Assembly: GCA_965248265.1 (NCBI GenBank)
Contig: CBDFJF010000002.1
Coordinates: 2,528,001-2,592,000 of the forward strand
Source: Candidatus Latescibacterota bacterium
Lineage (GTDB): Bacteria; Latescibacterota; UBA2968; UBA8231
Reading direction: 5' to 3'
Length of the DNA stretch: 64,000 nt
The notes beneath the pieces are model-generated. The model saw nothing but the letters and a program-made list of their open reading frames with translations. It was not told the DNA's origin and searched no databases. Shown here piece by piece: positions 1 through 64,000 of this stretch. A program made the position numbers and the translations under genes. How positions within the stretch are numbered: the first letter of the stretch is position 1; every line of letters starts with the position of its first letter.

Positions 1-1301
1 TCGCCATCCCGCACCCTGCATACAAGCTCGTAGTCCTCCTCAGACATGGATGCGTGGTAGAGATGGGCGAGTTCCTGCACGCGCATGGGGGCAGGACCGC
101 TGAGGACGGATACCTCCGGTTGGGTGAGGCACCAGCCTTTTTCGTCGTAACGCCGCGGCACCAGCAGCTGGCCGTCCTCGCGTTTGATCGAGTTGTCCAG
201 CAGAACGTTGAGCTGCGAGCGCAACAGTTCGAGATACTTGTAGTCCCCGGTCAGCAGAAGACAACACTCGGCGGCGATGTTGATGGCGTGGTAGATGATG
301 TTGAAGCCCTGGTAGTGACCCCAGCCGTAGAAGCCGCCCCACCATACGCCGTCGCGGTGTTCACCGACCTTGCCCGTGGGTCCCACGTTGTCGGGGATGA
401 CGCCGTTGTTCTGCTGGATGCGTTCCATCCAGGCCTCGGTGTACTCGAGGACCCATTGTTTGTACTTCTGATCACCTGTAGCCAGGTACGCATGGGTGAC
501 CAATGCAGTCGCCGCCAGGTTGTTGGCCGAGTCGCAGTCGAGGACGATGTGCTCGAACAGCTTCAGGATTTCGTCGGCGCGCTCGGGCACCTTCCACCAG
601 CCGTCCTCCAACTCCTCAACCACCGGGTAGAGACTGGCGCGTATGCCCATCGGCTTGGGCTCCCACTGGTCTGCCGGCGTTTTTTCGAGATTGCCGCCCT
701 GTAGCATGGCCATGGCGACGACGAGGCGGGATTCGTGCCACGGTCCCTGGCCCGACTGCGCCGGTGAACGCAGGACACGGTGTTGCGGATCGTAGTTGGG
801 GGCTTCCGGATCCTCACCGATGTACCACCCGGCGTACTGCCTGGCACGACGGACGTTCTCCGAGATTGTCGGGCAGGCCACGCCGAAGTCGTAGAAGGCC
901 ATGTTGCCTTCGCCTTTGTGATGCCATTCTGCGTCACCAGGGTGAGACAGATCGTAGTATTCACGAGAGAGATTCTGACGAAACAAACGGTGATCTCGGT
1001 GTCGGATATCATTGGCACAGATGCGGGTGGAGGCGTTCCAGGCTGTCAGTGCCATGTCGAGGATGCCGTCGTCGGCACCCATGGCATAAAACAGGCCCCA
1101 GTTGTAGAAGGCCTCGTAGAAGTCATCGATGTCATCCGCCCAGATCGCCGTGCCGCTGGGTTCGGTGCAGCGCCGCATGTACTCGGGCGCAGCCCCTTCC
1201 ATGAGGGTTATCAACTGGCGTTCCAACAGCGCCCACCCCGGTGGGGCGCTGACGCGGGTCGCCTTGAGATTGACTAGGTCAGGCATTTCAACTGCGGGCA
1301 T
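1..1301 (-). CDS. Uncharacterised protein (DDFYE / EWHHxGEG family), paralog 1; 3' end runs off the window
   Basis: Not in the ORF track because it is open-ended. Manual translation from ATG 1301 (GAGGA RBS) gives MPAVEMPDLVNLKATRVSAPPGWALLERQL...DDIDDFYEAFYNWGL...EWHHKGEGNMAFYDFG...GEDPEAPNYDP, colinear with 50363..52339. Confidence 0.85.
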   Translation of the reverse strand, partial: MPAVEMPDLVNLKATRVSAPPGWALLERQLITLMEGAAPEYMRRCTEPSGTAIWADDIDDFYEAFYNWGLFYAMGADDGILDMALTAWNASTRICANDIRHRDHRLFRQNLSREYYDLSHPGDAEWHHKGEGNMAFYDFGVACPTISENVRRARQYAGWYIGEDPEAPNYDPQHRVLRSPAQSGQGPWHESRLVVAMAMLQGGNLEKTPADQWEPKPMGIRASLYPVVEELEDGWWKVPERADEILKLFEHIVLDCDSANNLAATALVTHAYLATGDQKYKQWVLEYTEAWMERIQQNNGVIPDNVGPTGKVGEHRDGVWWGGFYGWGHYQGFNIIYHAINIAAECCLLLTGDYKYLELLRSQLNVLLDNSIKREDGQLLVPRRYDEKGWCLTQPEVSVLSGPAPMRVQELAHLYHASMSEEDYELVCRVRDG

Positions 1302-1362
1302 CGTCGGGGGTCCTCGTTCGGGGACGTCTTTGGCTGTGTCTCGCGAGTCGGCGCCGGGTGTG

Positions 1363-2520
1363 CTACTTCTTGTGTCTCTGCATTTCCTTCATGTACCACT
1401 GACCGCCGTAGAGGTCACGCTTGGAGTTCCAGCGATAGGGCACCGGCCACATTGGCTGCTCGCGTATCTCGGGCGGTAGTGGCAGGTGCATCGGAGCATG
1501 GGCGCGCCGTGCTGACTCCCTTAGGGCCAGGGTGATCTCGAAGGCCTGCTGCTGGTCGCGACCGCTGCAGCGCGGCTCGGTACCGTAGTCGATGGCGTCG
1601 ATGATCGACTGCACAGTATCGACAATGCGGCCGTCGGGCTCCAGCCAACCATCAGGTGACACCGCCGTCTCCTCTTGGGGTACGTTCGGCGCGAGTCCGA
1701 AGACCTCCTTCATGCCGCAGAACACGTCGTCGCTGCTCTCGTCTGTCTTCTGCCAGAAGCGCAGGCGGCGGCCGTCGCTGGCGAATACGCCTGTCGTCCC
1801 GACGACTTCGACTCCGCGCCGGGCACTGGCATTGACATGCACGGTCATCTCAATGCCGTTACCAAAGTGGATGAAGCCGCCGATGCCATTGAGGCCTTCG
1901 TCGCCGTCGCTGAAAGGATCGCCAGCCGTCTTACCGATTACCCATTCGGCATCGGCGTCCTTGCCGCTCTTGCCGCGGATGAATTGCCCGAGGGCGAACA
2001 TCTTTGCCCAGGCCAGGGCATTGCAGCCGCCCTGGACGATCTGGGTGAAACAGCTGATGCTGCGGACTTCGCCGATGGCGCCCTGAATGATGGCTTCCCG
2101 TGCGGCCCAGTTCTGCGGTCGCACGCGGTCGACGTTGCCGGCCTGGTATGGGACTCCCGCCTCGTCGCAGGCCTCGACCATGCGGTCCAGGTCGACGAGC
2201 CGTCCCGCGATCGGTTTCTCCGTCATGATGCCGCGCACGCCGGCTCTGGCGCTGGCGATGACGATCTCCGGGTTTGGCTTCACCGGTATGACAGTGGCGA
2301 CGATGTCGAGTTTCTCGTCGCGCAGCATCTGTCGATAATCGGTGTATCCGGCAGTGCCGAAGCGCTGGCAGAACAGGTCCAGGGTGTCCTGGGAACGGTT
2401 GCAGGCAGCGACGACCTCGGTAGCCGGATTTGTGGCGAAGGCGCGGGCGAAGAAGGTGCCCTGGCGGCCGGCACCGACGAGGCCCACGCGGTAGCGGCCT
2501 TCCATCAGATTCGCCGTCAT
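1363..2520 (-). CDS. Gfo/Idh/MocA family NAD(P)-dependent oxidoreductase
   Basis: RVGLVGAGRQG Rossmann motif and TEKPIA motif; ATG 2520 overlaps the upstream stop (ATGA). Confidence 0.9.
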   Translation of the reverse strand: MTANLMEGRYRVGLVGAGRQGTFFARAFATNPATEVVAACNRSQDTLDLFCQRFGTAGYTDYRQMLRDEKLDIVATVIPVKPNPEIVIASARAGVRGIMTEKPIAGRLVDLDRMVEACDEAGVPYQAGNVDRVRPQNWAAREAIIQGAIGEVRSISCFTQIVQGGCNALAWAKMFALGQFIRGKSGKDADAEWVIGKTAGDPFSDGDEGLNGIGGFIHFGNGIEMTVHVNASARRGVEVVGTTGVFASDGRRLRFWQKTDESSDDVFCGMKEVFGLAPNVPQEETAVSPDGWLEPDGRIVDTVQSIIDAIDYGTEPRCSGRDQQQAFEITLALRESARRAHAPMHLPLPPEIREQPMWPVPYRWNSKRDLYGGQWYMKEMQRHKK

Positions 2521-3650
2521 TTGCCGTAAAACCACGAGATGGGCAGCGCCCGTAGCTTGGCGCCGTAATAGCTGCCCCTGGCCGCTGGCTTGTTGTAGCG
2601 CCGGTCGTCGTAGCGCAGGAATGCCCGGTCGTCGATGAACCTGACTCGCGGATGACGAATGGTCCGGTGACCTGATGTGGGGTAGGGGCCGCTCTCCGGG
2701 CTGACTCCTGACGAGATCAAGAAAGCCGGTGGTTGGTCCGCGGGAATGCGATCGATGTTCTGCATGCCCTCGGTCTGAACTATAGTGCGGAAATGCTGCC
2801 AGCTGGCACCAGAGTCCACGGAGACAGCTGAGCTCAGCCGAGAGCGATAGAATCCGCCCAACGTTTCCTCAGCGTTGACCTGATTCCACACGCAGAGCAG
2901 ATCGCCCGTCTCCGGAAGGCGATCCAGCCAAATTTCCGAGCGGCTGCTGACCAGATCGTTGAACTCGCCCTGTTCCCAATGCACCCCACCGTCGCTACTG
3001 TAACTTTGGGCGATGCGTTGCATCTCCGTGCGCATGAACATGAGTAGCCTGCCGTCCGTTGTCTCGGCAACGCAGGGCGCCTCCACGAACGAGGCATATG
3101 CACCGCGATCCTGTTCGCAAACGAATACGGTGTCCGTGGATTCTGACCATGAGACCCCTTCGTCATCCGAATAGAAGGCCGTGCAGAGTTTCATACTGTT
3201 GTGGGGGAACTGGCGGGTGTCCTGTCCAAAGGCGTATTCGTTCGGCATGATCAGCCGCCCACTGCCGGTCTGCATCAAATAGGTGGGATAGGATGGTGTG
3301 CCAGGCCAGGTCACCAGCACCGGTTCGGACCAGGTCAGGCCTTCGTCCTCCGTTTTGCGGAACAGAGTTCGGACCTCGCGGGTGCCGACTGGGTCGGCGA
3401 GCCTTTGCCAGTAGTTGACGGCGATGGCGCCTGAGGCAAGGCGAATCACGCTCATGGGTTGGAAGGTATCGCCGGTGAGCGCCGGGTTTGCGGGTTCAGG
3501 GAGGGGACCCGATGGCTCCCACGTCCTGCCGTCGTCGGAGGAATGCAGCAGGTTGAGCTTTCCATCCAGGCCCAACAGCCGTCCATCCGTCAGCCGGATC
3601 GGTCCGACGAAGCCCGTGGGGATTTCTACCTCGAACAGGGGTTCCGACAC
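2517..3650 (-). CDS. BNR/Asp-box beta-propeller protein (sialidase-like)
   Basis: Five Asp-boxes: SSDDGRTW, TEDEGLTW, SDDEGVSW, SSDGGVHW, SVDSGASW. No signal peptide. Confidence 0.85.
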   Translation of the reverse strand: MSEPLFEVEIPTGFVGPIRLTDGRLLGLDGKLNLLHSSDDGRTWEPSGPLPEPANPALTGDTFQPMSVIRLASGAIAVNYWQRLADPVGTREVRTLFRKTEDEGLTWSEPVLVTWPGTPSYPTYLMQTGSGRLIMPNEYAFGQDTRQFPHNSMKLCTAFYSDDEGVSWSESTDTVFVCEQDRGAYASFVEAPCVAETTDGRLLMFMRTEMQRIAQSYSSDGGVHWEQGEFNDLVSSRSEIWLDRLPETGDLLCVWNQVNAEETLGGFYRSRLSSAVSVDSGASWQHFRTIVQTEGMQNIDRIPADQPPAFLISSGVSPESGPYPTSGHRTIRHPRVRFIDDRAFLRYDDRRYNKPAARGSYYGAKLRALPISWFYGK

Positions 3651-3727
3651 TGTCTATCCCTCCTGAAGATGGATCTCAACGCCGGCCACAAGTATAGGGT
3701 AGACGGCCTGCTGCTGCAGACTATTAC

Positions 3728-4108
3728 TCAGTCGGTCGGCAAGGAGGCGGTGTAGTTGCGCCACCCCTTCCATTGAGTGATCTCTTGCATACCCTCGCAG
3801 AGGACGGGCTCGCCGAGCACGCCGAGGACCTCCTCATCATCGGCGAGCTGAACCTTGCCGATACACAGACCGGGCGGTTCCGAAATCAGCAGCGTTGCCA
3901 GTCCGGCCACGGGGACGGACCAGATCTCCAGCTGGATGGAGATGCCCCCAGAGGAGACTTTGAGCATCGCCGGATCGATCGACCACAATCGATAGCAGGG
4001 TGCGGTTGCTGCCTCTCGAACAAACAGACCGCCGACTTCTGTCAGATTGCCGCTTAGCTCCAGGCCTCGCATCAATGTACCGTTGACGGCGAGATCGATC
4101 GATTTCAC
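3728..4108 (-). CDS. Stand-alone allophanate hydrolase C-terminal / gamma-glutamylcyclotransferase-like protein
   Basis: LAVNGTLMRGLEL, EPPGLCIGKVQLAD and ITQWKGWRNY; GTG 4108 is preceded by GGAGG. Confidence 0.75.
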   Translation of the reverse strand: MKSIDLAVNGTLMRGLELSGNLTEVGGLFVREAATAPCYRLWSIDPAMLKVSSGGISIQLEIWSVPVAGLATLLISEPPGLCIGKVQLADDEEVLGVLGEPVLCEGMQEITQWKGWRNYTASLPTD

Positions 4109-9469: not shown

Positions 9470-9472
9470 TCG

Positions 9473-12854: not shown

Positions 12855-14405
12855 CTACTCTCCGTAGGCTATCCAGAATTCGACGTTCTCAATGCCCAGC
12901 GGCGGACGGATTCGGGCGTCGCGCTTGACGAGAACGACCTTGACTTCGTGGCCGCCCGGTGAAATCTGTGCCGCTTCAAGGTCCCACACCAGCCAGCTGT
13001 TCTCGTCGACGTCGGCCGGGTTGTTGGGATTCTCCGCGGTCTGATTGCGGATCGCGGGGGGACCCAGCGGCGTGCCATCCAGGGTCACCGCTACTTCGTC
13101 TCCGGTGGGCGAGAAGTGTGCCATTTCGAGCAATAACTGCAGGCTGCTGGCTTTCCCCGGATCCGCGTCGTGGGTGGAAATGTGGAAGGTCGGGCCGTCA
13201 GCAGTCAACGTCCGATGGAGGTCGACGGGGACCTCACCATAGATGCGATCATCCCGTTCGGAGTCCAGGCGCAGCGGGTTGGTGCCGATGCTTCGGTAAA
13301 TGGCGGTATAGGCCTTGTCTTGATCCTTCAGCGTTTCAGTTGACCCAATCGTCGAAAGAGAATGACGCCGAGTCGTAGCATTTGCATGCCAGTTGAAGAT
13401 GTAGATGCCGTGGGCGCCACGATCGAAGTGGCCCTGCGCCATGCCGGCGAACCAGCGATCGCGCCACCGAGTATGTGGGATCAGTCGATTGGCCAGCTGT
13501 CGTGAGTCGAAGTCCAGACCGGGATACACCTGGATGTCGGTGCCTTCTACAAGGCGGAGAAATTCCTCGGTCTCGAAACAGGGGTCCGTTCCGGAATTGC
13601 CGCCACCAATGATGATGTCGCACAAGCCCTCTTTGACCCAGGTCTCTAGGTCGTAGCCGATACGACGGCATGATTCCAGGGTCGCAGCCACCCGTACGGC
13701 GACGGGGAAGGGGCGGCCGCGTTCTTCGGCCAGTCGATTGGTCATCTGGCGCACGGCCCGCTGCAGATCGGTGAGGGCGTAACGCAGCCGGTACTCGTGG
13801 TTGCCGGGCAGGTGAAAGGCATGACGTTGCCAGTCGAGTTCGACGCCGTCCCAGTCCGTCAGGCGACAGGCCTGCTCGATGAGGTCCAGCTTGTGTTCGC
13901 GAACCTCCGGAATGGCCATGTTCCATGAGGTCGCGCACCACCCCGGTGCCTGGTCGCCGAGGCACCATTCGGGGTGCTGTTTGCGCAGATCCGTCATCTC
14001 ATGTTCGTCGGACTTCTGCATGGCTTCCAGATCCTGGATGGTCCAGAAGTGCTGGTCGTTCATGCGGATGGATGGCCACGCATCGATGCCGAGCTCGCGT
14101 CCGCGCGCTACCATCGCGCCGTATAGATCCTCGCCGCGTTCCAGCAAGGCGCGGATGTTCTCCGTATCCCGCATGGCCAGGACACTGTCGTAGATCCTGC
14201 CGACTGAATCGCCCTTTACCGGTAGATTCCCTGACAACCACGTTGCTTCGTGGATGCCCATGCACCAGAACAGGGCGTCTACCTGGGTGTCGGCGAGGGG
14301 GGCGTAGACCTTTTCCAGGAACTGCTCTACGGTCTGGGGGTATTCGTCGTAGTGGTGAGGGGCACCATCCCAGTTATAGATGATTCGGTATGGGGATTGA
14401 GCCAT
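12855..14405 (-). CDS. Glycoside hydrolase-like TIM-barrel protein (GHL10-like), close paralog of 44255..45814
   Basis: YRIIYNWDG, RMNDQH, WDGVELDWQRH, GIYIFNW; ATG 14405 after GAGGAG. Confidence 0.65.
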   Translation of the reverse strand: MAQSPYRIIYNWDGAPHHYDEYPQTVEQFLEKVYAPLADTQVDALFWCMGIHEATWLSGNLPVKGDSVGRIYDSVLAMRDTENIRALLERGEDLYGAMVARGRELGIDAWPSIRMNDQHFWTIQDLEAMQKSDEHEMTDLRKQHPEWCLGDQAPGWCATSWNMAIPEVREHKLDLIEQACRLTDWDGVELDWQRHAFHLPGNHEYRLRYALTDLQRAVRQMTNRLAEERGRPFPVAVRVAATLESCRRIGYDLETWVKEGLCDIIIGGGNSGTDPCFETEEFLRLVEGTDIQVYPGLDFDSRQLANRLIPHTRWRDRWFAGMAQGHFDRGAHGIYIFNWHANATTRRHSLSTIGSTETLKDQDKAYTAIYRSIGTNPLRLDSERDDRIYGEVPVDLHRTLTADGPTFHISTHDADPGKASSLQLLLEMAHFSPTGDEVAVTLDGTPLGPPAIRNQTAENPNNPADVDENSWLVWDLEAAQISPGGHEVKVVLVKRDARIRPPLGIENVEFWIAYGE

Positions 14406-14468
14406 GGTGGTCACTCCTCGCACAAGGCTGAATGCAGCGTCGATAATGGCATTACCGACAAATTAAGG

Positions 14469-23388: not shown

Positions 23389-23405
23389 GGCTTTTCCCCC
23401 CTCCC

Positions 23406-26594: not shown

Positions 26595-26768
26595 GCTTTC
26601 CCCCTCCCGTGCGTGCAACCCCAAGGGCCTCCCCGATGCCAGTCCTCGGTTCAGTGCCGTCTGCATGGCGATATTGGAGACCAGTGCCCGCGCATCACCG
26701 ACGAACGGTGAGTGCAGCAGAGACGTCCCCCTGGTTATCGAAACTTACAGATATTACCTGTAGAGGTC

Positions 26769-33479: not shown

Positions 33480-33526
33480 AGCTTTCCTCCAGGCCACTCA
33501 AGCCCATGCCGTCACACAGCCAAGAT

Positions 33527-41572: not shown

Positions 41573-41659
41573 GGAGCTCCTCCCTTTCGTATTCATGTGC
41601 GCCTACCCACCGGGCCTGAACGGCTGGCACCGATGCACACAGATGCGGCGCTTTGGCTT

Positions 41660-43195: not shown

Positions 43196-44248
43196 CAGCC
43201 AGGCGGGCCTCCCGCGTGATAGACGACATCATCTCCGAACCGCTTTCTTCCCTTTGCTGCGGGCCCGACGATATCCAGTTGCCCCCTGCCCATTACGGCT
43301 TCGCGAGATCCATCCCGCATAGGGTCTGCGTACCGCACGAACCAGGTTTCCAGATCCTCCTTCAGCCGTTCAACCACAAGCTGGTGTTTTGACTGATCGA
43401 TGAGATTCTCCCGTTCATCAAGATCATGCACCAGATCGTAGAGTTCATGCGGGCCGTATGGATACCGATGGATATATTTCCAGGCGGCCGATCGAACCAT
43501 ACGCGTTGGCCCGTATTCGTCAAATACGACCACAGAATCATGGCCCTCCGAATCCCGTCCCTGCAGCAAGGGTGCGAAACTCCGTCCGGGAAGCGAATCA
43601 GCCTGAGAGTGCGCGATATCCAAGTAGTCGAGCAAGGTAGGCATGATGTCGTAAGGCTGTAAAGCGACTGGATGACCCGCCGCTGAGGTACATGCTCCGG
43701 ATGGGAGATCAGTGTGGGCACTTTCACAGAGGTATCAAACATGTTGGGCGGGAACGTGCCATTGCCTTTTCCGTAGATGCCGTGCTCTGGTAGGCCTTGC
43801 CATCCCGAATCATCGGCGCCTTGTAGTACGGTCCGCCACCGTTTGCGTGAACGTCCCAGAATGTGAAACCCTTTTGCGGTTTCTCCGAATAGCCTAAATG
43901 CCACTTTCCACTCAAGCCGCACACATAGCCTTGTTCGGCCAATAGATCAGTATAGGCGGTTTGACCATGCAGGTACTCGATGCCAGAATCACCCGGTCCG
44001 TAAACGCCTGAGTTACCGGCACGCAAGAAATCCTGAACCCCGTGCTGAGATGGAATGCGCCCGGTCAAAATAGAAGCACGAGCTGGCGAGCAAACCGGCG
44101 AGGCACAGAAAAAATGCTCGAAACGTAAACCAGTCGCCGCCAGCCGATCGAGGTTAGGCGTGTGAATTTCTGCATTCCCCGCACAACCCATTGCCCAATA
44201 GCCCTGGTCGTCGGTCAGAATGAAAAGAAGATTGGGTGTTCGTGACAT
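43195..44248 (-). pseudogene. Sulfatase pseudogene (internal deletion plus frameshift)
   Basis: PNLLFILTDDQG, CSPARASILTG and GKWHLG, then a jump at about 43787 to HGIYGKGNG in another frame; a second 1-nt loss at about 43655 (S[H]YDIMPT). Confidence 0.85.
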
Positions 44249-44254: not shown

Positions 44255-45814
44255 TTACATGTACTTCACATGCACGTCTACGTGGTCGATGGTCAGGGGG
44301 ACGCTGATTCGACGATCTCGATTGATCAGGACGACCTTGACGATGTGCAACCCCTTGGCGAGCTGATCGGGTTCCAGGCCCCAGACCAGCCACTTGTTCT
44401 CCGACACCCTTGGGGGGGCATCGTCGTTTTCGGCCACGTCGACGATGGCCGGGGGGGCGAGGGCGTGGCCGTCGAGGCTGACCTCAACTTCGTCCTGTGG
44501 TGCCCAATGTGCGATCTCGATGTGGAGTTGCAGCGCCGTGACGTCAGCTGCTAGTGCTACCACGTCGTCGTGCATGGAAAGCTTGAAGGTCGGACCATCC
44601 CCGGTGAGGGTCGGCATAAGCACCGCTGCCGTTTCACCGTAGATGCGATCGTTCACGGCGTTCGGCCCGACACCGTCGACGTAGGTCGGACCACGACGCA
44701 GCACCGAGTACAGTTTGTCCTTTTTTTCCAGCGTTTCCAGCGTTCCCATGCTCTTGAGCAGGGGGCTCCAGTCATCCTTCTTCGGGAACCAGTTGAAGCA
44801 GTAGACTCCATCCCCGCCCTGGTCGAGGTAGCTGGCGGCGGTGGCTCTGAAGAAACCGTCCCGCCACTGGGTGTAGGTGATCAACCGGGCACCATCCTGC
44901 CGGTAGGTGCTGTCGAAACCACCATACAGTCGGATGCCGGTGCCATCCGTGTGTCGCTTGAACTCGCTCACCTCGAAGCCCGGATCGGTGGCTGAGCCGC
45001 CGGCGCCGATGATGATGTCACACAGGCCATCCACCGTCCATTGCGGAATGTCATAGCCGATGCGCCGGCACGATTCCAACGTCGTGGCCACGCGCACGGC
45101 GACATGGAAGGGGCGGCCCTTTTCGGTGGCGATGTCGTCGGCCATCTGCCGGAGGGCACGCTGCAGATCGGTGAGGGTGTAGCGCAATCGGTAGGCATCG
45201 AATTGGGGCAGGTGATGGGGGTGCCGCTGCCAATCGATCTCGACGCCATCCCAGTCAGCCTGGTCGCAGGCCTCGCGGATATAGGAGAGCTTGTGCTCGC
45301 GGACTCCCACGTTGGCCATGTTCCATGAGCCTACACCTCGTTGCTCGGGCACATCATCGACATCCAGGAGCCATTCGGGATGGTCCTGCCGCAGCCTGGT
45401 GCCTTTGTTGAGCTTCTTGAACTCGTGTGGGCGGGTGTTGTAGAAGTGGTTGTCATTCATCCGCATCGAGACGTACACGTGCATACCGAGCTCGTGTCCG
45501 CGCTCGACCATGCCCTGATACGGATTTTCTCCCTTTTCGAAGAGGTTCCACACATTCTCGTCGTGGCGCATGGCGCGGATTGAATTGTAAGTCCGGCCGC
45601 TGCTTTCCCCGGCGCGCTCGTTGTTCTGGGCGGGAAACAGCGCTGCGTGACTGCCGATGCTCCAGAACATGGCGTCGACCTGGGTGCCTTCGAGCGAGGC
45701 GAAGGTCTCGTCGACGATCTGCTCCGTTGACTGCGGATGCTCGCCGTAGGCCAGGCTGTCACCGTCCCAGTTGAAGATGATCCTGTACCGTGGTGGCTGT
45801 GTTCTCTTGTTCAT
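44255..45814 (-). CDS. Glycoside hydrolase-like TIM-barrel protein (GHL10-like), close paralog of 12855..14405
   Basis: YRIIFNWDG, RMNDNH, WDGVEIDWQRH, NDRIYGE. Confidence 0.65.
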   Translation of the reverse strand: MNKRTQPPRYRIIFNWDGDSLAYGEHPQSTEQIVDETFASLEGTQVDAMFWSIGSHAALFPAQNNERAGESSGRTYNSIRAMRHDENVWNLFEKGENPYQGMVERGHELGMHVYVSMRMNDNHFYNTRPHEFKKLNKGTRLRQDHPEWLLDVDDVPEQRGVGSWNMANVGVREHKLSYIREACDQADWDGVEIDWQRHPHHLPQFDAYRLRYTLTDLQRALRQMADDIATEKGRPFHVAVRVATTLESCRRIGYDIPQWTVDGLCDIIIGAGGSATDPGFEVSEFKRHTDGTGIRLYGGFDSTYRQDGARLITYTQWRDGFFRATAASYLDQGGDGVYCFNWFPKKDDWSPLLKSMGTLETLEKKDKLYSVLRRGPTYVDGVGPNAVNDRIYGETAAVLMPTLTGDGPTFKLSMHDDVVALAADVTALQLHIEIAHWAPQDEVEVSLDGHALAPPAIVDVAENDDAPPRVSENKWLVWGLEPDQLAKGLHIVKVVLINRDRRISVPLTIDHVDVHVKYM

Positions 45815-47364: not shown

Positions 47365-47457
47365 TCGGCCGGTGTGATGGCCAGATCTTGACCATGGTCT
47401 AACTCTGGTCTTACTCTGGATTTTTTGGACTTGCCCAGTAGAGCAGGACTCAATCCG

Positions 47458-48516
47458 ATGAATCATTCACCGCCGTATCCCGAGGGTATCAAGATCGGGA
47501 ATTTCTTCCCGCCCGAGCACTGCGGCGCTTCCGGGGGGTTGCTGTCTCTTACTACCGACGAGGAAGGGGCCGCTGAGGATTGGGCGTTCCTCCGTCACAC
47601 CGGTGTCGAGTACCTCTCCACATGGACGACCATCGACGGCTCCAGCTACGAGGCCATGCTACGGCACCGCCAGCAGGTGGAGGCCCAGGGCATCAAGGTC
47701 TACAACATCGGTATCCTTGATCTACACTGCGACCCGACGATCGTGCTCGGGCTCAGAGGAGTTGACGAGAAGATCGACCAGTACCAGCAATACCTGCGAA
47801 ATCTGGGCAAGGCCGGCATCCCCTATACCACCTACGCCCACATGGCGAATCTCAAAAACCAGGCCATCCCGGGTTATTATCAGACAGCCAACGTGCGTGA
47901 CCGGGGTGGGGCAACGACGCGCGAGTTCGACCTCGACGTTGCCAACCAGCTGCCGCTCTCGCAGGACAGGGATTACCCAGAAGATCACATCTGGGGCACT
48001 TTTACCGACTTCATTCGCGCTGTGATGCCGGTGGCCGAGGAAGCGGGTGTCCGCATCGGCCTGCACCCCGACGATCCACCGGTCGCCTCGCTGGGGGGCA
48101 TTGCGCGTTGCTTCCGTAATTTCCAGGCCTTCGAGCGGGCCATGGAGATTGCCGACAGCGATAACTTCGGTCTCTGCTTCTGTGCCGGAACCTGGGCAGA
48201 GGGCGGCCCGATGATGGGGAAAGACGCGTTGGAAATGATCCGACACTACGGATTCCACAAGAAGATCTTCAAAGTGCATTTCCGCAATGTTGACCGCCCC
48301 TTACCGAAGTTTCAGGAGACCTTCATCGACAACGGATATCTCGACGCGTACCAGGTGATGCGGGCGCTTCGGGAAGTCGAATTTGATGGTATAATTGTCC
48401 CCGATCACGTCCCTGCCGGGGGCTATCCACAGGTGAACAACGCGTACACGATCGGTTATATGAAAGCCCTTCGCGATCGCGTCAATGAAGAGTTTGGGGA
48501 GGTGGGACCGCGATGA
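47458..48516 (+). CDS. Mannonate dehydratase (UxuA) family protein
   Basis: PVAEEAGVRIGLHPDDPP, GLCFCAG, VHFRNV, FQETFIDNG, PDHVP, YTIGYMKA. Confidence 0.88.
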   Translation: MNHSPPYPEGIKIGNFFPPEHCGASGGLLSLTTDEEGAAEDWAFLRHTGVEYLSTWTTIDGSSYEAMLRHRQQVEAQGIKVYNIGILDLHCDPTIVLGLRGVDEKIDQYQQYLRNLGKAGIPYTTYAHMANLKNQAIPGYYQTANVRDRGGATTREFDLDVANQLPLSQDRDYPEDHIWGTFTDFIRAVMPVAEEAGVRIGLHPDDPPVASLGGIARCFRNFQAFERAMEIADSDNFGLCFCAGTWAEGGPMMGKDALEMIRHYGFHKKIFKVHFRNVDRPLPKFQETFIDNGYLDAYQVMRALREVEFDGIIVPDHVPAGGYPQVNNAYTIGYMKALRDRVNEEFGEVGPR

Positions 48517-49352
48517 ATGACGTGGAGAAGTACGAATTCGACCGTCTGGGTTACCTGGTGATTCCCAACCTGCTCTCACCGGAGCAGGTGGCTTCACTGG
48601 TGCCTGTCGTCGACGGGGTGGAGGAGCATGCCGTCGAGCACGTCGACGAGCCCCCACGCAAGAGAAGCGGCTGGGGCATGGACACCCATAGCAATCCCGA
48701 GCGCGGCTACCACGTGTACGGAGCAAGGGGAGACAGCAAGACGATCGTCATCGAGGATTTCTGGAACGCGGACCCGGCATTCGATTTCCTCATGGATTGG
48801 CCTCGCACGATGGAATACGTCAACGCCGTGATACGCGGCCGGCCGACGATCAACAACTCTGAGATCCGCATTCGCTACAAGGGGAATCAATCGCCCAGTC
48901 ATGGCGGCGGCGGCAGACCGGTGAATCACAAATACCGCTACAATGCCGACGATCAGGGTATCGACTGCATGATGGTGCGGATGGTGTATTTCATCCACGA
49001 TGTGAGTGACGAACAGGGCGCATTCAGCGTCGTTCCGGGAGCACACAAGTCCAGCTTCCCAACTCCGTATGAAGCGAATCCGGACACCATGCCGGGCATG
49101 ATCGGTCTGCAGGTGAACGCCGGGGATGGCATCTTCTTCACCGAGGCCCTGACCCACGGGGGCCTGACCAACCACTCCGAGCAGGTGCGCAAAACGCTGC
49201 ACGTGGGATACGGGCCGAACTGGATGCTGTCGCAGAACATCGCGACCATGGATGAGCCGCAACATCTGACCGAACAAACCCGGACCCGACTCAGCGAAGA
49301 GCGCCGGGATCTGTTTCGTAGCTGGCCCGAGAATCCCAAACCACGCGGTTAG
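48513..49352 (+). CDS. Phytanoyl-CoA dioxygenase (PhyH) family protein
   Basis: YEFDRLGYL, SHGG, VVPGAHKS, AGDGIFFTEALTHG, RKT. Confidence 0.85.
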   Translation: MNDVEKYEFDRLGYLVIPNLLSPEQVASLVPVVDGVEEHAVEHVDEPPRKRSGWGMDTHSNPERGYHVYGARGDSKTIVIEDFWNADPAFDFLMDWPRTMEYVNAVIRGRPTINNSEIRIRYKGNQSPSHGGGGRPVNHKYRYNADDQGIDCMMVRMVYFIHDVSDEQGAFSVVPGAHKSSFPTPYEANPDTMPGMIGLQVNAGDGIFFTEALTHGGLTNHSEQVRKTLHVGYGPNWMLSQNIATMDEPQHLTEQTRTRLSEERRDLFRSWPENPKPRG

Positions 49353-49405: not shown

Positions 49406-50308
49406 GTGAAGGAACTGAGAATACATCAGGTCGACGCGTTTACGGACGCTCTCTTCGGAGGCAATCCCACTGCCGTGGTCTGCGACGCCGATGTTCTCGA
49501 TGACGACGAGATGCGCAAGATCGCCCGCGAGATGAACCTCTCCGAATCGGTGTTCCTGCTGCCAAGCGACCAGGCCGACGTCAAACTGCGGTTTTTTACT
49601 CCCCCCGGTGACGAGATCAAGTTCTGCGGCCATGCAACGGTCGGCGCCCTCTACACGATTGCGACCCAGCAGCTGTACGAGACCAGCGCCAGCGGCGGGA
49701 GGCAACAGCTGACGATCGAGACCAATGCCGGCGTGTTGACTACCGACCTCGACTTCGACGGTGGTCCATCCCCCGGCATCATCCTCGACTGTCCCAAGAT
49801 AGACCTGGTGCCGACGAAGTACGAACTGGCGGATGTGGTGTCCGCGATGGGTCTGAAAGAGGATCAGGTGGACTGGGACAAGCCGCTGATGCTGGAGCGG
49901 ACCAACAATTATTTGTACTTCGCAGCTCCAAATATTGAGGTCCTGCAAGAGATCGAACTCGACGTGCGCGGTGCCATCGAGTTCGCTCAGAATGACCACA
50001 TCGTCGTGTTCTGCGTCATGACGGCGCAGGCCCTCGACGCCGCCAACCATGTCCATGCCCGCGGTTACGCCCCGCTCGTCGGGGTCCCCGAAGACCCGTT
50101 CACCGGATCGATGCAGGGTGGTCTGGCGGCCTACCTGGTCGCCAATGACATGGTAGGTGCTGATCTGTCCCTCATAGGCTCGGAACAGGGTCACTTCATC
50201 GGCCGGCCTGGCCAGGTGCGCATCGAGATCGTCGAGCGGGCGCCGCAATTCCGCGCGCGCATGCACGCCAGTGCCGTCGCCGTGTTTGAGACCGTGCTGA
50301 CATTGTAA
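49406..50308 (+). CDS. PhzF/YHI9 family epimerase/isomerase
   Basis: VDAFT..GNPTAV, EMNLSES, EIKFCGHAT, EDPFTGS, EQG. Confidence 0.92.
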   Translation: MKELRIHQVDAFTDALFGGNPTAVVCDADVLDDDEMRKIAREMNLSESVFLLPSDQADVKLRFFTPPGDEIKFCGHATVGALYTIATQQLYETSASGGRQQLTIETNAGVLTTDLDFDGGPSPGIILDCPKIDLVPTKYELADVVSAMGLKEDQVDWDKPLMLERTNNYLYFAAPNIEVLQEIELDVRGAIEFAQNDHIVVFCVMTAQALDAANHVHARGYAPLVGVPEDPFTGSMQGGLAAYLVANDMVGADLSLIGSEQGHFIGRPGQVRIEIVERAPQFRARMHASAVAVFETVLTL

Positions 50309-52357: not shown

Positions 52358-53509
52358 ATGGCGACATCAAACGGGGTGAAGTACCGGGTAGCCGTTATCG
52401 GCTGCGGCAGTCACGGCACGCGACTGGCGCGCACCATCGACCTCAACCCGCTGTGCGAGGTCGTGTGCGGTGTGAACCGCGGTCAGGAAGGGCTCGACCT
52501 GTTCTGCGAGCGCTTCGGTGTCCACGGGTACAGTGACTACCGCGAGATGCTGGAGAAGGAACGGTTCGAGATCGCGCTGATGGGCCTGCCTGTAAACGTC
52601 AATGCCGAAATCGTCACCGCCTGCGCCGAGAAGGAGGGTGTCGTCGGCATCATGAGTGAGAAGCCGGTGGCTACGAGTCTGGCTGAAGCCGATCGGGCGG
52701 TCGAGGCCTGTGCATCGCGCGGCATCCCGTGGGCCTCCGGGGACATGTTTCGGAATTCACCTCAGATTTGGAAGGCCAGGGAGCTGGTCGAAGCGGGCGA
52801 AATAGGTGACGTGCAGTCCATCGAGGTGTTCGGTGCGGGGGGAAACCAGATGTCGGGTCAGGGATGCCGGCAGCTCACCGACGCCTTCATGTTCGCCGGC
52901 GATGCCGACATCGATTGGGTGGTCGGGGCTGTCGACGGCAATCCGGCCGATGCCGAACTGGGGGAGATCGACGAACACAGCGACCACGACCAGGGCATCG
53001 TGTTCGGTTTCGTCCAGTTTGCCAACGGGGCGACCGCTCATCTGCACAAGAATATTGCTGCCAAGAACGGCATCGAAGTGCACGGGAGCACGGGTGTTCT
53101 CTACATTGGTCAAAGCAGGGTCGGCAAGATCTGGCACAGGGATGGTGCTGAGCTAAAGCTGGCCGGCAGCTTGTTCGATTACCCGGATACCGCCCACACA
53201 GCCTTGCGGGCCGATTTCGACGAGGACGGCTGGGAGGTTCAGCGCACCCGCATGACGGACAGCGTCGACGCCTTCGTCGAGGCCGTGGATAAGGGCACGC
53301 CCGCCAAATGTAGCGGCGCTGATGTGGCCAAGGCGCTGGAACTGGCCATCGCCGTGCGCGAGTCACACCGGCGCGGCATCGTCAAGGTCAACCTGCCGTT
53401 GGAGGATCGCGAACTGAAGATCATTCCCAGCGCCAGGCGCTACGTGGGCCGTCGGGAATGCGAGGGTACGGAGGCTTTCATGGAGTTCGTGAAAGGGTAC
53501 AAGCGCTAG
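52358..53509 (+). CDS. Gfo/Idh/MocA family oxidoreductase
   Basis: RVAVIGCGSHG, SEKPVA, ALELAIAVRESHRRG..LPLEDR. Confidence 0.9.
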   Translation: MATSNGVKYRVAVIGCGSHGTRLARTIDLNPLCEVVCGVNRGQEGLDLFCERFGVHGYSDYREMLEKERFEIALMGLPVNVNAEIVTACAEKEGVVGIMSEKPVATSLAEADRAVEACASRGIPWASGDMFRNSPQIWKARELVEAGEIGDVQSIEVFGAGGNQMSGQGCRQLTDAFMFAGDADIDWVVGAVDGNPADAELGEIDEHSDHDQGIVFGFVQFANGATAHLHKNIAAKNGIEVHGSTGVLYIGQSRVGKIWHRDGAELKLAGSLFDYPDTAHTALRADFDEDGWEVQRTRMTDSVDAFVEAVDKGTPAKCSGADVAKALELAIAVRESHRRGIVKVNLPLEDRELKIIPSARRYVGRRECEGTEAFMEFVKGYKR

Positions 53510-56412: not shown

Positions 56413-56441
56413 GCCCTTACTTCCAGAGACCCGCCCCTACC

Positions 56442-60120: not shown

Positions 60121-60894
60121 CTACACGAGCGCACTCAGGATCAGGTGCTGAATCCAGTCCCTGCCGTCGTTGATGAGGGCGTGCCGGGTGTTGGGTGGGA
60201 TGTAGGCGGCGTCGCCGTCGCGCACATCGAGTGTCTTGTCTCCCAACAACAGCTTGCCGCTGCCTTCGGTGAAGTAATAGATCTGTTCCTTGTTGTCGTG
60301 TTCGTGCACCTCTTCCTGTTTGCCTCCCGGCATCATGTGCATGGTCAATCCGTGGAATCCTTCCAGCGGCGCTTCCTCGTAGGTCCGGTTAGGGAATTGG
60401 CCTTTCTCAGCCAGGATGGACCAACCGACCGCGCCATGGCTCATTCGCGGCAGGCTGTCACGCCAGTTGCGGATCACAGGGTCGACACATCCCCGGTCCG
60501 CCGAGTCTTCTAAACCGTCGCGAGCCCACATGGGGATGGCGCTGATGACGAGGTGGTCGATGAACTCGTCCGAGTCATTGACGATCGAGTGCACGCCCTG
60601 GGCCGGAAGATAGACGGCGTCTCCGTCTGAAACGTCGTGGAACTCATCCCCCAGCTGAACCTTGCCACGCCCCTTGATGATGTAGTAGACGTGCTCCTTG
60701 GCCTTGTGCGAGTGTGCCGGCTCTACCATTCCGGCCTGCAGCATCCGAAAGGTGAGTCCATGCAGGCCTACCAAGGGTGAGACCTCATACGGCTTACCCT
60801 CACCCCTCTCAGTCAGGATCTTCCAGCCAACGGCGCCATGACTGTTGGCCGGCTCTTGATCTCTCCAATTGCGAATGAATGGGGGGTGGTCCAT
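60121..60894 (-). CDS. Bicupin protein
   Basis: Two repeats: IRNWRD..SHGAVGW..HSH..EHVYY..GD..H and HEH..EQIYY..GD..H; ATG after GAGGTG (alternative start 60921). Confidence 0.85.
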   Translation of the reverse strand: MDHPPFIRNWRDQEPANSHGAVGWKILTERGEGKPYEVSPLVGLHGLTFRMLQAGMVEPAHSHKAKEHVYYIIKGRGKVQLGDEFHDVSDGDAVYLPAQGVHSIVNDSDEFIDHLVISAIPMWARDGLEDSADRGCVDPVIRNWRDSLPRMSHGAVGWSILAEKGQFPNRTYEEAPLEGFHGLTMHMMPGGKQEEVHEHDNKEQIYYFTEGSGKLLLGDKTLDVRDGDAAYIPPNTRHALINDGRDWIQHLILSALV

Positions 60895-61059
60895 CAGTTG
60901 CACCTCATGGTTAGGGGTCATCGTCGATTGCCGACTGAAAAGAGCCACGCAGCCGATTATTGTCAATGCGCCATTCGATGCAAGCTGGCGGCGCTGATTG
61001 ACTCTGGTTACAATGATCGAAAACGGGAACGAAAAACGAGCACCCGGAGATTCCAGCAC

Positions 61060-62217
61060 ATGTCGCAGGATCCCAAGTACCGCGTCGCCCTCATCGGCGG
61101 CGGCCGCGCCGGGCCGTCGCGCGCCGCGGCCTTCGATGCCCATCCTCTGTGCAAGGTGGTCGCTGTCGCTGACACGGATCCGGAGAACCTGACACTGACT
61201 GCGGGAAGGTTCGATGCCGCCGCCTACGCCACCTTCGACGACATGTTCGCCAACGAGCAGCTCGATATCGTGTTGCCGATCCTGCCGGTGCGGCCCAACG
61301 CCGATGCAGTCGTGGCCGCGGCCGAAGCCGGAGCCAAGGCCATCTTCTGCGAGAAACCGCTGACCGCCTCTCTCGCTGACGCCGACCGTATGGTCGAGGC
61401 CTGCGCCAGTCGCAACATTCCACTGGGGTGCGGGGTCATGGTTTCCTCTCATCCCGACTATCGCAAAGCTTATCGCCTGGCCGCAGACGGCACCATTGGC
61501 CAGGTCGGGCGCATCAACCTCTATGGCAACAACAATCAGGGCGGCTGCCATGGCATGAACCTGGTGCGCAAGTTCGCCGGCAAGGCGGCGATCGAGGAAG
61601 TCATCGGCCGTGTATCCGGTGATCCCCACAGCGACCACGAGGAACCCTACGATGACGCCAAGACGGGGTTCGGTGACGTCGGTGGCTACATCCGCTTCGC
61701 CAATGGCATCGAGGCCTTCCTCAGTCTCGGCGATTTCGGCGTACGCGGGATCGAGGTCATCGGTCCGCGCGGCATGATCGTCAACAGCGACAACACAGGG
61801 CTTGGATTGCAGCTGCGGCTGGCTCCGGAAGGTGGCGGCAGAACCTATCTGACGGAGATGGAGCCGGTGGACGTCGGCTTTGAGCCGCGACCAGTACCCG
61901 GTGCGGAGCGGGGCCGTGACGCGGCTGGATGGATGGATCCCGGGTTCCCCATGTTCAACATAGTCGACGACACCATGCGCGTCCTCGAGGAAGGGGGGGA
62001 ACTGGAGATCACGACGGGTGATGATCTGCGTCACGCCCTGGAGATGAGCATCGCGGTGCGGGAATCGGCACGGCGCGGGCATGCGCCGGTCACCCTTCCG
62101 TTGGAAGACCGGTCTCTGGCGATGTACCCGGAGCGCAGTCGATGGCACTACAAGAAACCGCTCTTGGGCGAGAAAGCCTACATGGATATGCTGGCCCAAC
62201 AAAAAGTAGAAACCTAA
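61060..62217 (+). CDS. Gfo/Idh/MocA family oxidoreductase
   Basis: RVALIGGGRAG, FCEKPL, ALEMSIAVRESARRG..LPLEDR. Confidence 0.9.
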   Translation: MSQDPKYRVALIGGGRAGPSRAAAFDAHPLCKVVAVADTDPENLTLTAGRFDAAAYATFDDMFANEQLDIVLPILPVRPNADAVVAAAEAGAKAIFCEKPLTASLADADRMVEACASRNIPLGCGVMVSSHPDYRKAYRLAADGTIGQVGRINLYGNNNQGGCHGMNLVRKFAGKAAIEEVIGRVSGDPHSDHEEPYDDAKTGFGDVGGYIRFANGIEAFLSLGDFGVRGIEVIGPRGMIVNSDNTGLGLQLRLAPEGGGRTYLTEMEPVDVGFEPRPVPGAERGRDAAGWMDPGFPMFNIVDDTMRVLEEGGELEITTGDDLRHALEMSIAVRESARRGHAPVTLPLEDRSLAMYPERSRWHYKKPLLGEKAYMDMLAQQKVET

Positions 62218-62235
62218 AAAAGGAGCCGTACCCCC

Positions 62236-64000
62236 GTGAGTGACATGAATCAGTTGCCGAACATCACCGCGACGCGAGTGGCGGCGCCACCGTCGTGGGC
62301 CTTGATGGAGAGAAACCTGATCGCGCAGATGGACGAAGCCGCGCCGTTGAGGTTCCGCCAGGCGGCGGAGCGCGGCGGGGCCATCCTCTACGCCGAAGAC
62401 TACGATGATCTCTGGGAGCAGTTCGCCAACTGGGGGCTCTACTACGGCCTCGGTGGCAGCGATGAGGTGCTGGAGATGGCGGCGACGATGTGGAACGCGA
62501 CGGCCCGCATCAGCGATGATCAGATTGTCCACCGAACCCGCTTCAACGATGGGAAAAAGACCTTTCGTCCGTCGGGACACCGGGAGTACTGGAATTACAC
62601 CCAGGCGATGGAGTGGCATCACCTGGGCGAGGGGCTGATGGCGTTCTACGACTTCGGCGTCGCCGACCCGACGATCTCGGAGATGGCCCGGCGCGCGCAG
62701 ACCTTTGCCGGCTTCTACACCGGCGAGGATCCCGAAGCGCCCAACTACGATCCTGAGCACAAGATCCTGCGATCTCCCTTCCAATCGAGTCAGGGACCAC
62801 GGCTGGAAGCGGAAGCGGAATACGCGCACGCCATGCTGCTGGCCGGGCGCTGGCTGGGAAGCGAGGTCAACTACTACGGAGTCCGGGCAAGCCTGTACCC
62901 CATCGTCGAGGATCTGGAATTGAACTGGTGGGAGGACCCTGCCCGGCGCGAGGAGATCGTCGCGCTGTTCAACAAGCTCATCATGCAGTCGGATACCCCG
63001 AACAATCTGGCTGCAACGGCATTGATAACGCACGCCTACCTGTACACAGGGGACGATAAATACAAACGCTGGGTCCTCGACTACACCGAAGCCTGGATGG
63101 AGCGTGCCAAGAAGAACGGCGGAATCATGCCTGACAACGTCGGACCCACTGGCAAGGTCGGCGAACACCGCAACGGCAATTTCTGGGGTGGCCAGTACGG
63201 CTGGAACCACTACCAGGGCTTCAGCATCATGTTCCACGGCCTCAGCATCGCAGCCGAATGTGCATTGCTACTGTCCGGTGATTTCGGCTATGTCGACGTG
63301 TTGCGCAGCCAGATCAAGGTGTTGATGGAGGCTTCCATCACCCGTGACGACGGTCAACTGATCATGCCGACGCGGTATGGTCCTTCGGGGTGGCAGTACG
63401 ATCCGCCACTGCCTCGGCGTGAGGACACCATCGTGCCGATGCGTCATGTCTATACCGGCCCCTTGCCCTGGCGTATGCAGGAGTTGGCACATCTCTACCA
63501 TGCATCGATGGCGCAGGAGGATTACGAGCTGATAGATCGCGTCCGCCAGGGAGAAGTTGAGCGCGATTGGAATGAGGTCGGGACGGTCGGCAGTGAAAAG
63601 AACGGCGGGCAGACCGAATTCGCCCGGTTCCAATATTATGACGGCAAGAATCCCGACTGGCCGGAGAAAATTCTGACGGCCGAGACCAACTGGTCACTGG
63701 AGGCACTGGAAGAGATTCGCCACGACCAGCGCACCGTGTTCGAGCGTCTGGAGGTGAACGCGTTTCCACCCAATCCCATCGTCACCAAGGGACTGACCCA
63801 ACTGACGACGGGAGCGCCCCAGTCGGTCTTCAACGGCGGTCTGCTGCGCTCGACGGTCAGGTACTTCGATTGTGATGAACAGCGGCCCGGCATGCCGCGC
63901 GACGTCGCCGCCCTCGTCGACCACCTGGCCGCCGATGCGGTGGGGGTCCAGCTGGTGAACTGCAACCGCTACGAATCTCGCCGTCTGATCGTCCAGGCCG
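62236..64000 (+). CDS. Uncharacterised protein (DDxxE / EWHHxGEG family), paralog 3; runs off the window
   Basis: Not in the ORF track. GTG after AGGAG; PPSWALMERNL, DDLWE, EWHHLGEG, GEDPEAPNYDP, MPDNVGPTGKVGE, QYYDGKNPDWP. Confidence 0.85.
   Translation, partial: MSDMNQLPNITATRVAAPPSWALMERNLIAQMDEAAPLRFRQAAERGGAILYAEDYDDLWEQFANWGLYYGLGGSDEVLEMAATMWNATARISDDQIVHRTRFNDGKKTFRPSGHREYWNYTQAMEWHHLGEGLMAFYDFGVADPTISEMARRAQTFAGFYTGEDPEAPNYDPEHKILRSPFQSSQGPRLEAEAEYAHAMLLAGRWLGSEVNYYGVRASLYPIVEDLELNWWEDPARREEIVALFNKLIMQSDTPNNLAATALITHAYLYTGDDKYKRWVLDYTEAWMERAKKNGGIMPDNVGPTGKVGEHRNGNFWGGQYGWNHYQGFSIMFHGLSIAAECALLLSGDFGYVDVLRSQIKVLMEASITRDDGQLIMPTRYGPSGWQYDPPLPRREDTIVPMRHVYTGPLPWRMQELAHLYHASMAQEDYELIDRVRQGEVERDWNEVGTVGSEKNGGQTEFARFQYYDGKNPDWPEKILTAETNWSLEALEEIRHDQRTVFERLEVNAFPPNPIVTKGLTQLTTGAPQSVFNGGLLRSTVRYFDCDEQRPGMPRDVAALVDHLAADAVGVQLVNCNRYESRRLIVQA

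Follow-up and report, generated by a model that had tools for sequence, protein, structure and literature searches.

In oxidative glycoside cleavage, dehydrogenases of the Gfo/Idh/MocA family (GFO) are partnered by sugar-phosphate-isomerase-like lyases (xylose-isomerase-like TIM barrels) or by DUF1080 proteins, according to a preprint by Nasseri et al. (2024). The AL/BT clusters of that preprint, the levoglucosan system LgdA-B-C (PMC7676230) and the C-glycoside system DgpA/B/C each place a GFO dehydrogenase beside a cleaving enzyme that is not of the Koshland type. A similar arrangement occurs in the genome of a Candidatus Latescibacterota bacterium (G000, assembly GCA_965248265.1; 7.32 Mb, 2 contigs), within a 64,000-nt stretch (C2:2528001-2592000, G+C ~60%) that was analyzed as a whole and is called the window below. 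Here, three members of the uncharacterized Pfam family DUF8034 (PF26099; X in gene-pair notation) each lie directly beside a GFO gene. Unlike the partners in the AL/BT, LgdA-B-C and DgpA/B/C systems, DUF8034 matches neither the xylose-isomerase-like TIM-barrel families nor DUF1080, and the window GFOs score below the models for glycoside 3-dehydrogenases. We tentatively favor, with somewhat less than even confidence, the view that DUF8034 is a soluble cytoplasmic carbohydrate-active enzyme that would cleave or open imported acidic oligosaccharides or glycosides and feed oxidative sugar-acid pathways.

Two further described systems invite comparison. Glycoside hydrolase (GH) families GH88 and GH105 (PF07470), six-hairpin unsaturated glucuronyl and rhamnogalacturonyl hydrolases, act on lyase-generated uronide oligosaccharides; these enzymes are cytoplasmic and hydrate the C4=C5 vinyl ether by means of a suitably placed catalytic Asp. 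DUF8034 resembles them in a local 'TGDxxY' hairpin motif, in a weak hhalign signal that fell when the template was split, and in the pectate-lyase/uronate context of its haloarchaeal members, but is ~300 aa longer and shows no significant sequence similarity to them. The second system is the expansion of PhyH (PF05721) genes in sponge-associated Poribacteria (Kamke et al. 2014, PMC3909097), which is matched here in phyla, genome style and the presence of a large, diverse cytoplasmic enzyme family with tens to hundreds of copies. DUF8034 is nevertheless a different protein family, and PhyH genes are not enriched immediately beside its copies in this genome. In sponge metagenome-assembled genomes (MAGs), GH33 and GH88 were reported as enriched, with the enrichment confined for the most part to Poribacteria, Latescibacteria and a small number of further groups (Robbins et al. 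2021).

The initial annotation of the window had described a protein family of ~660 aa in three copies, each abutting a co-oriented GFO gene in one gene order or the other, and coordinates together with PF01408 scores bear this out. Copy B (P0001, 50351-52339, + strand; its start had been placed at 50363) is complete at 662 aa and lacks a signal peptide; it is followed after 18 nt by GFO_B (52358-53509, +). Copy A (P0002, 3-1301, -) comprises the N-terminal 433 aa of a 648-aa genomic open reading frame (ORF) that runs off the left edge, beyond which a tandem paralog follows; GFO_A (1363-2535, -) lies 61 nt upstream of it. Copy C (P0003, 62236-63999, +) contributes 588 aa before running off the right edge (677 aa in the genome) and begins 18 nt downstream of GFO_C (61060-62217, +; the ORF is open from 60838, and the alignment indicates 61060 as the likely start). 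Gene order is thus GFO-X twice and X-GFO once. Copies A and C, recovered by genome search with E-values of 1.7e-215 and 3.2e-198, are 47-50% identical to copy B over the shared length, with 146 invariant columns. The three GFOs are 37-42% identical among themselves and match PF01408 with 70.6, 58.9 and 70.8 bits (cut-off 24). The three-copy observation is real and non-random.

All three copies belong to DUF8034, a Pfam entry that consists of a name without a function. Membership was established indirectly, from precomputed labels of homologs and from ESM Atlas clusters: among the matches listed, 120/120 homologs (47-90% identity, 94-99% coverage) carried the PF26099 label and, where named at all, were called 'hypothetical protein', and 28/30 feature matches in the ESM Atlas were DUF8034 clusters (scores 0.97), the nearest of them '100% DUF8034'. 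A word-index search returned at least 897 relatives, and an exhaustive profile search 2561 clusters at 50% identity with E ≤1e-3 (1665 at 1e-10, 572 at 1e-30). A scan of the three copies against NCBIfam and a Pfam copy that lacked the PF26099 model gave nothing above threshold; the sole sub-threshold match came from copy A, to RE_MamI (E 0.0057; 16.8 bits, cut-off 25). Scattered Pfam matches among other members (Big_3_3 in two, Alginate_lyase in one at E 0.29, SQHop_cyclase_N in one at E 0.069) were treated as noise, and a PDB match at E 1.3 for the C-terminal 163 aa as chance. No AP_endonuc_2/sugar-phosphate-isomerase or DUF1080 membership was found in the window copies or among 42 members searched at E ≤10. 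We found no publication naming PF26099 or DUF8034, in a search whose scope did not extend to subscription-journal papers and supplementary files, and nothing relevant on the cultured homologs by accession or on the Haloferax pHV3 cluster described below; the expansion of the family, its neighbor statistics and its recurrent GFO pairing were likewise not found in print.

Conservation across divergent members of the family falls mostly on acidic, His and aromatic residues. The motifs DDxxE, EWHHxxEG, GEDPEAPNxDP and PDNVGPxG, read from the window alone in the initial annotation, hold in an alignment of 119 sequences, where D61, D62, E65, W138, H140, E143, P312, D313, G316 and G319 never vary and conservation reaches 90% or more at E175, D176, A179, P180, N181 and D183. 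Across paralogs only 29-36% identical, D61, D62, E65, E116, H140, E143, R164, D183, D266, Y296, W300, N307, D430 and several Trp are retained. Such invariant acidic, His and aromatic residues are as would be expected of a sugar-binding active site. A hydrophobic N-terminal leader ahead of the conserved core was found in 0/34 paralogs of the genome, so we take these proteins to be cytoplasmic. One homolog ends in a type IX secretion system (T9SS) Por_Secre_tail, pointing to secretion of the protein by some bacteria, and another joins an FGE-sulfatase (SUMF1-like) domain to the C-terminal half of DUF8034; both additions are typical of glycan-degrading proteins. These fusions emerged solely from the exhaustive search and the cluster listing, and a word-index search for longer fused forms returned none.

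The window is a small edge part of a large DUF8034 expansion. A profile search of all ORFs ≥100 aa in the genome gave 38 matches, 34 of them at ≥200 bits including one truncated copy of 377 aa, and a separate search gave 47 match pieces. DUF8034 is among the most expanded gene families of this genome, where ad hoc hidden Markov models applied to ~6000 greedy gene calls counted ~174 PhyH, 88 GFO-like, 81 'unk527', 66 enolase-superfamily, 61 short-chain dehydrogenase/reductase (SDR), 42 aldo/keto reductase (AKR) and 36 BNR_2 genes. All 41 related genomes searched contained DUF8034 matches (3-42 match pieces each). Close relatives in public data came from 75 loci: 28 from Candidatus Latescibacterota, 20 from Chloroflexota/Dehalococcoidia including SAR202, 19 from Candidatus Poribacteria, 5 from Gemmatimonadota and 3 from unclassified MAGs; the nearest ortholog of copy B (68%) is in a Latescibacterota MAG. 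DUF8034 is therefore a sizeable uncharacterized family common to four phyla, including the sponge-associated Poribacteria and Latescibacterota and ocean SAR202-type bacteria.

How often DUF8034 and GFO genes are neighbors was quantified against a crude greedy ORF set of the genome (5935 background genes). A co-oriented adjacent GFO was found for 3/34 copies, all three in the window. The window GFOs belong to a 17-paralog subfamily, and genes of this subfamily occur at ±1 for 3/34 copies against 31/5935 background genes (0.52%; binomial P 7.5e-4), a 17-fold excess, and within ±3 for 5/34 against 1.6% (binomial P 2e-4). For any of the 88 GFO-like genes, the comparison at ±1 is 3/34 against 2.9% (binomial P 0.07). 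Enolase-superfamily genes (5/34 at ±1 against 2.0%, P 6e-4), BNR_2 (6/34 at ±3 against 3.2%, P 6e-4), AKR (6/34 at ±3 against 3.9%, P 0.0017) and above all further DUF8034 genes (8/34 at ±1 against 1.0%, P 1.5e-9) were also enriched, and PhyH, with its 174 genes, was not (2/34 at ±1 against 5.1%). In the 75 public MAG loci, which hold 104 family genes, 3 have a same-strand GFO no more than 400 bp away, and the cluster method placed a GFO at ±1 gene of 4; many of these loci are orthologous, and the counts are not independent. GFO pairing is thus a recurrent minority link to one GFO subfamily, above chance, while enolase, BNR, AKR and PhyH genes and tandem paralogs are equally common or commoner neighbors. 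The fixed module of oxidoreductase and partner envisaged in the initial annotation does not stand, given that 31/34 copies here, 100/104 in MAGs and 12/14 from cultured organisms have no adjacent GFO. Its expectation of co-occurrence across homologs fared unevenly: the excess over chance is there for the one subfamily, but most homologs stand without an adjacent GFO.

The subfamily is marked by the C-terminal tail ALE..IA.RES.RR....LPL. The annotation had read this shared tail as the sign of one subfamily, and it is indeed present in all three GFOs, but it is not special to them; 14/17 subfamily members lie away from DUF8034, next to enolase, PhyH and BNR_2 genes, one DUF2961 gene and other large proteins without a Pfam match. 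Gfo/Idh/MocA oxidoreductases typically carry an EKP motif with the catalytic Lys, and E101, K102 and P103 are invariant in 20 sequences of the subfamily. Against the NCBIfam models of glycoside/disaccharide 3-dehydrogenases (BT_2158_fam, BT_2159_fam), the window GFOs scored 20-28 bits with cut-offs of 650-750, and they matched the IolG, xylose 1-dehydrogenase and UDP-GlcNAc 3-dehydrogenase models similarly weakly. Judged by these scores, they could equally be sugar 1-dehydrogenases.

Two further protein families were seen beside GFO-subfamily genes. One, of ~520 aa, has no or only a weak GHL10 (PF02638) match and is itself expanded, with ~38-40 blastp matches (E ≤1e-10) among the genome ORFs; it occurs in the window at 12855-14423 (-), 39971-41596 (-) and 44255-45814 (-), and its members flank GFO-subfamily genes at L121:6765-8381 and L122:2004-3701. 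The other, of ~500 aa, has no Pfam match (L119:3562-5076, L121:3530-4981, L111:6829-8514 and L124:1883-3412, all in the same genome; 24-60% identical) and adjoins 4 of the 14 GFO-subfamily genes located away from DUF8034.

Phylogeny speaks to the origin of the pairs. In a quick IQ-TREE analysis of the 34 paralogs and 11 chosen external genes (45 rows), the window copies fell in three different supported subclades: copy B is sister to a Latescibacterota gene (locus L087) that is likewise followed by a GFO, and copies A and C fall with different members of the X-X-X-GFO clusters seen at L086 (a Poribacteria MAG) and L049 (an unclassified MAG). The three X-adjacent GFOs are not monophyletic either, in a tree of 26 rows (matches of the genome at ≥170 bits minus two ORFs >500 aa, plus 5 external genes). 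Juxtaposition of X and GFO therefore arose independently at least three times, and a derivation of the window pairs by duplication of one ancestral two-gene unit was rejected, neither the X copies nor the GFOs being monophyletic. Once formed, pairs have persisted. The copy B/GFO_B pair is kept in orthologs of two related genomes, in G016 as a 69% identical DUF8034 gene followed with a 4-bp overlap by a 71% identical GFO, and in L087; the UxuA-like, PhyH and PhzF genes that precede copy B in its operon are not conserved in either. One X-GFO pair is conserved across phyla (Latescibacterota/Poribacteria). A 1055-aa ORF from a metagenome (P0186) runs on from an ortholog of copy B (70%) into a complete ortholog of GFO_B (69%) that has its own Met at residue 665, in the same gene order as in the window. 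This ORF comes from a single contig, the other full-length members of its cluster are unfused, and it may be an indel artefact. At L087, an RVT_1 reverse-transcriptase ORF (107-1315, +) lies just upstream of the GFO/DUF8034 cluster and probably belongs to a group II intron or retron-type element.

Gene neighborhoods elsewhere point to sugar and sugar-acid breakdown. The neighbors that recurred in the 75 MAG loci, which represent four phyla, were PhyH, enolase, AKR, GFO, SDR, HpcH aldolase, aldehyde dehydrogenase, amidohydrolase and PIG-L deacetylase, with PhyH the commonest immediate neighbor (38/104 at ±1, 61/104 within ±3). A tblastn search of PLSDB returned 22 records (27-33% identity over ≥87% of the query): 16 from haloarchaea, 3 from Streptomyces and 1 each from Nonomuraea, Asticcacaulis and Sphingobium. 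Fifteen loci were inspected, 14 of them annotated. Among these 14, a GFO was found at ±1 in two (Halopiger, and Halarchaeum in the order X-GFO-GH4) and within ±3 in five, a pectate lyase within ±3 genes in five, ThuA at ±1 in three and an IclR regulator within ±3 genes in six. ThuA has 4 matches in the Latescibacterota genome, none of them near a DUF8034 copy. Further neighbors in the cultured organisms were GH28, GH4, GH3, UxaA-family hydrolases, glucuronate isomerase (UxaC), mannonate dehydratase and KdgD, together with paired mandelate racemase/muconate lactonizing enzyme (MR/MLE) genes, a dihydrodipicolinate synthase (DHDPS)-type aldolase, FAH-family and aldehyde dehydrogenase genes, and tripartite ATP-independent periplasmic (TRAP) or ATP-binding cassette (ABC) transporters. 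On Haloferax volcanii pHV3, HVO_RS01685 is the X of a gene block made up of two MR/MLE genes, GFO, DHDPS-like, X and ThuA, with GH4 and UxaA nearby. In Asticcacaulis, the DUF8034 gene overlaps an upstream major facilitator superfamily (MFS) transporter and has a cupin and kdgD alongside. In Streptomyces, the overlap is with an aldo/keto reductase on the downstream side, and the surroundings include a fucosidase, an esterase, a beta-helix protein and a sugar ABC transporter. These contexts place DUF8034 firmly in carbohydrate catabolism, especially of uronate- or pectin-like substrates, across two domains of life.

The cytoplasmic carbohydrate-active enzyme that we favor would cleave or open imported acidic substrates, oligosaccharides or glycosides that contain uronate or are modified in another way, and would most likely represent a new glycoside-hydrolase- or lyase-like family. 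The released sugars would enter oxidative, non-phosphorylative sugar-acid routes through a GFO dehydrogenase, an enolase-superfamily dehydratase, an AKR or SDR, an aldolase, a cupin and a UxuA-like enzyme. The 34 diverged paralogs, in common with the expanded PhyH, GFO and enolase families of this genome, would differ from one another in substrate specificity. In this scheme we infer the catalytic activity, the class of substrate and the sequence of the steps. The undescribed partner enzyme proposed in the initial annotation survives in part: DUF8034 is probably carbohydrate-active and its GFO link exceeds chance, but it is not part of a fixed module. If the reading is correct, it would help to explain how these bacteria, which are uncultured, draw on carbon from the host and from dissolved organic matter, a gap at present, and CAZy would gain a family of a new type. 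Single-copy members in harmless, genetically tractable organisms (Haloferax volcanii, as HVO_RS01685 on pHV3, Asticcacaulis excentricus and Streptomyces) have a clean context (pectin, uronate, GFO, ThuA), so their function is directly testable.

Fold comparisons addressed this reading and the alpha/alpha barrel suggested in the initial annotation. The middle of DUF8034 contains two 'TGDxxY' helix-hairpin motifs, over which hhalign against a mixed GH88/GH105-like alignment from the phylum gave a probability of 54.8% (P 1.2e-4). Alignments of GFO, GH127 and heparinase-like proteins gave 0.2-0.5%; the 0.2% and 0.5% for GH127 and heparinase II-III-like toroid enzymes come from shallow own-genome templates, which make for a weak test. 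Over own-genome or phylum alignments of GH127, heparinase II/III, AGE and DUF2264, the range was 0.1-1.4%. PF07470 (GH88/105) was not found in this genome and is present in 10/121 genomes searched in the phylum, an absence compatible with DUF8034 covering a related role; the AGE family (PF07221) is present in 64/121, with up to 14 copies per genome.

Several results weigh against the favored reading. The hhalign signal fell to 2.1% and 4.8% when the mixed template was split. AGE and GH88 are both members of the six-hairpin clan, and the positive control of one against the other reached 1.7%, so the set-up had no power for the fold. Searches of PDB by sequence and profile returned 0 matches for copy B and for profiles of the family, 42 members searched against Pfam at E ≤10 matched no consistent family, and DUF8034 has no significant similarity to any characterized enzyme. 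No polysaccharide lyase was found among the recurrent neighbors in the bacterial MAG loci, and the uronide element of the reading therefore rests mainly on haloarchaea. The SAR202/Dehalococcoidia carriers are not known polysaccharide degraders. The binomial P values overstate significance, since tandem copies that share neighbors were treated as independent, and in a genome so crowded with expanded families some of the co-location is island crowding.

Other explanations give the GFO pairs more weight, or less. Had the GFO the task of oxidizing glycoside C3, DUF8034 could be a dedicated lyase, hydratase or hydrolase that breaks the resulting 3-keto-glycoside, and would join the sugar-phosphate-isomerase-like lyases and the DUF1080 lyases as a third type of partner. 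The repeated origin of pairs, which happened three or more times and involved different subclades of X and of GFO, agrees with this, as do their tight spacing (18-nt gaps or 4-bp overlaps), the similar divergence of both genes in G016 (X 69%, GFO 71%) and the presence of the pair in L087. The read-through ORF of 1055 aa that joins X and GFO points the same way, and the copy B operon includes a xylose-isomerase-like TIM-barrel gene. Haloarchaeal DUF8034 genes lie beside GFO, GH4 and ThuA, and GH4 enzymes and the ThuAB system work via 3-keto sugars, according to the Nasseri et al. preprint and, by its title, Ampomah et al. (2013); the preprint also expects operons of this kind to show 'varied architectures'. 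We nonetheless consider this unlikely. An adjacent GFO is lacking in 31/34, 100/104 and 12/14 copies (this genome, MAGs and cultured organisms), 14/17 genes of the GFO subfamily stand beside other genes, the GFOs reach 20-28 bits where the 3-dehydrogenase cut-offs are 650-750, with xylose 1-dehydrogenase and IolG about equal, and the fusion, one contig in a cluster whose remaining full-length members are unfused, could be an indel artefact. An extended form of the idea, which strikes us as quite improbable, would make DUF8034 a new redox-assisted class of glycoside-cleaving enzyme with a dedicated, perhaps bound, GFO, breaking 3-keto-activated glycosides that ordinary hydrolases cannot; the tens of copies in Latescibacterota, Poribacteria and SAR202-type Chloroflexota would then be a toolkit for modified, recalcitrant glycans of sponge and marine dissolved organic matter.

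The enzyme might instead leave glycosidic bonds alone and act on single sugars or sugar acids, as an isomerase, epimerase, cyclo-isomerase or lactone-opening enzyme in an oxidative pathway like those of Weimberg or De Ley-Doudoroff, for which its neighbors would code. The enolase superfamily is the most enriched immediate neighbor in this genome (5/34), the conserved Haloferax/Haladaptatus block (two MR/MLE genes, GFO, DHDPS-type aldolase, DUF8034) has no obvious lactonase or isomerase, Asticcacaulis pairs DUF8034 with an MFS transporter only, beside KdgD and a cupin, and SAR202-type carriers favor small-molecule catabolism. A probably two-domain protein of 650 aa with many invariant Trp and acidic residues and 34 paralogs fits a glycan-active enzyme better, as do the T9SS-tailed homolog and the pectate-lyase/GH28 neighbors, and we hold the monomer-level role to be rather improbable. 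Lastly, adjacency could be meaningless, with DUF8034 unrelated in role or non-catalytic and the pairs a product of crowding among expanded families in fluid accessory islands. A genome with 174 PhyH, 88 GFO-like, 66 enolase, 42 AKR and 36 BNR_2 genes makes such encounters easy, and the enrichment against any GFO at ±1 is weak (3/34 versus 2.9%, P 0.07); yet the excess concerns a single GFO subfamily (17-fold), different genera retain the pairs and one pair spans two phyla (Latescibacterota/Poribacteria), and the carbohydrate context recurs in archaea, Actinomycetota and Alphaproteobacteria, which leaves crowding as the whole explanation very unlikely.

The genes named as neighbors of the three pairs in the initial annotation (Asp-box protein, UxuA, PhzF and cupin) are confirmed by Pfam matches, and a PhyH gene is present too. 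The operon of copy A and GFO_A begins with a BNR_2/Asp-box gene (2517-3650, -; sialidase-like beta-propeller, PF13088 72.4 bits) that overlaps the start of GFO_A. The copy B operon opens with a divergent UxuA-like gene (47425-48516, +; mannonate-dehydratase/xylose-isomerase-like TIM barrel, PF03786 E 2.7e-39, PF01261 E 6.5e-13), which scores below the NCBIfam cut-offs, and continues with a PhyH-family Fe(II)/2-oxoglutarate oxygenase (48513-49352, +; PF05721 50.3 bits) and a PhzF-family isomerase (49406-50308, +; PF02567 183.7 bits, TIGR00654 179 bits with a cut-off of 76). Divergent from GFO_C is a cupin gene with two cupin domains (~60121-60780, -; PF07883 98.3 bits at residues 831-1028 of a long ORF); its start is approximate, and the long ORF (60121-63237) is mostly spurious.

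Elsewhere in the window, a SusD-like gene (22024-23835, -) and a SusC-like gene (23406-26666, -; TonB-dependent receptor with CarboxypepD_reg and Plug) form an outer-membrane uptake pair of the polysaccharide-utilization-locus type; the two ORF calls overlap by ~430 nt, and one start is probably over-called. Two short overlapping ORFs at 43362-43922 (-) and 43724-44248 (-), the upstream one matching positions 1-121 of the 301 of PF00884, may be a frameshifted or split sulfatase gene. Two giant regulators stand in tandem, one of 1111 aa with Ser/Thr kinase, AAA_16 and TPR (27742-31077, -) and one of 807 aa with AAA_16 and TPR (31074-33497, -), and are followed by a PP2C phosphatase (26979-27728).

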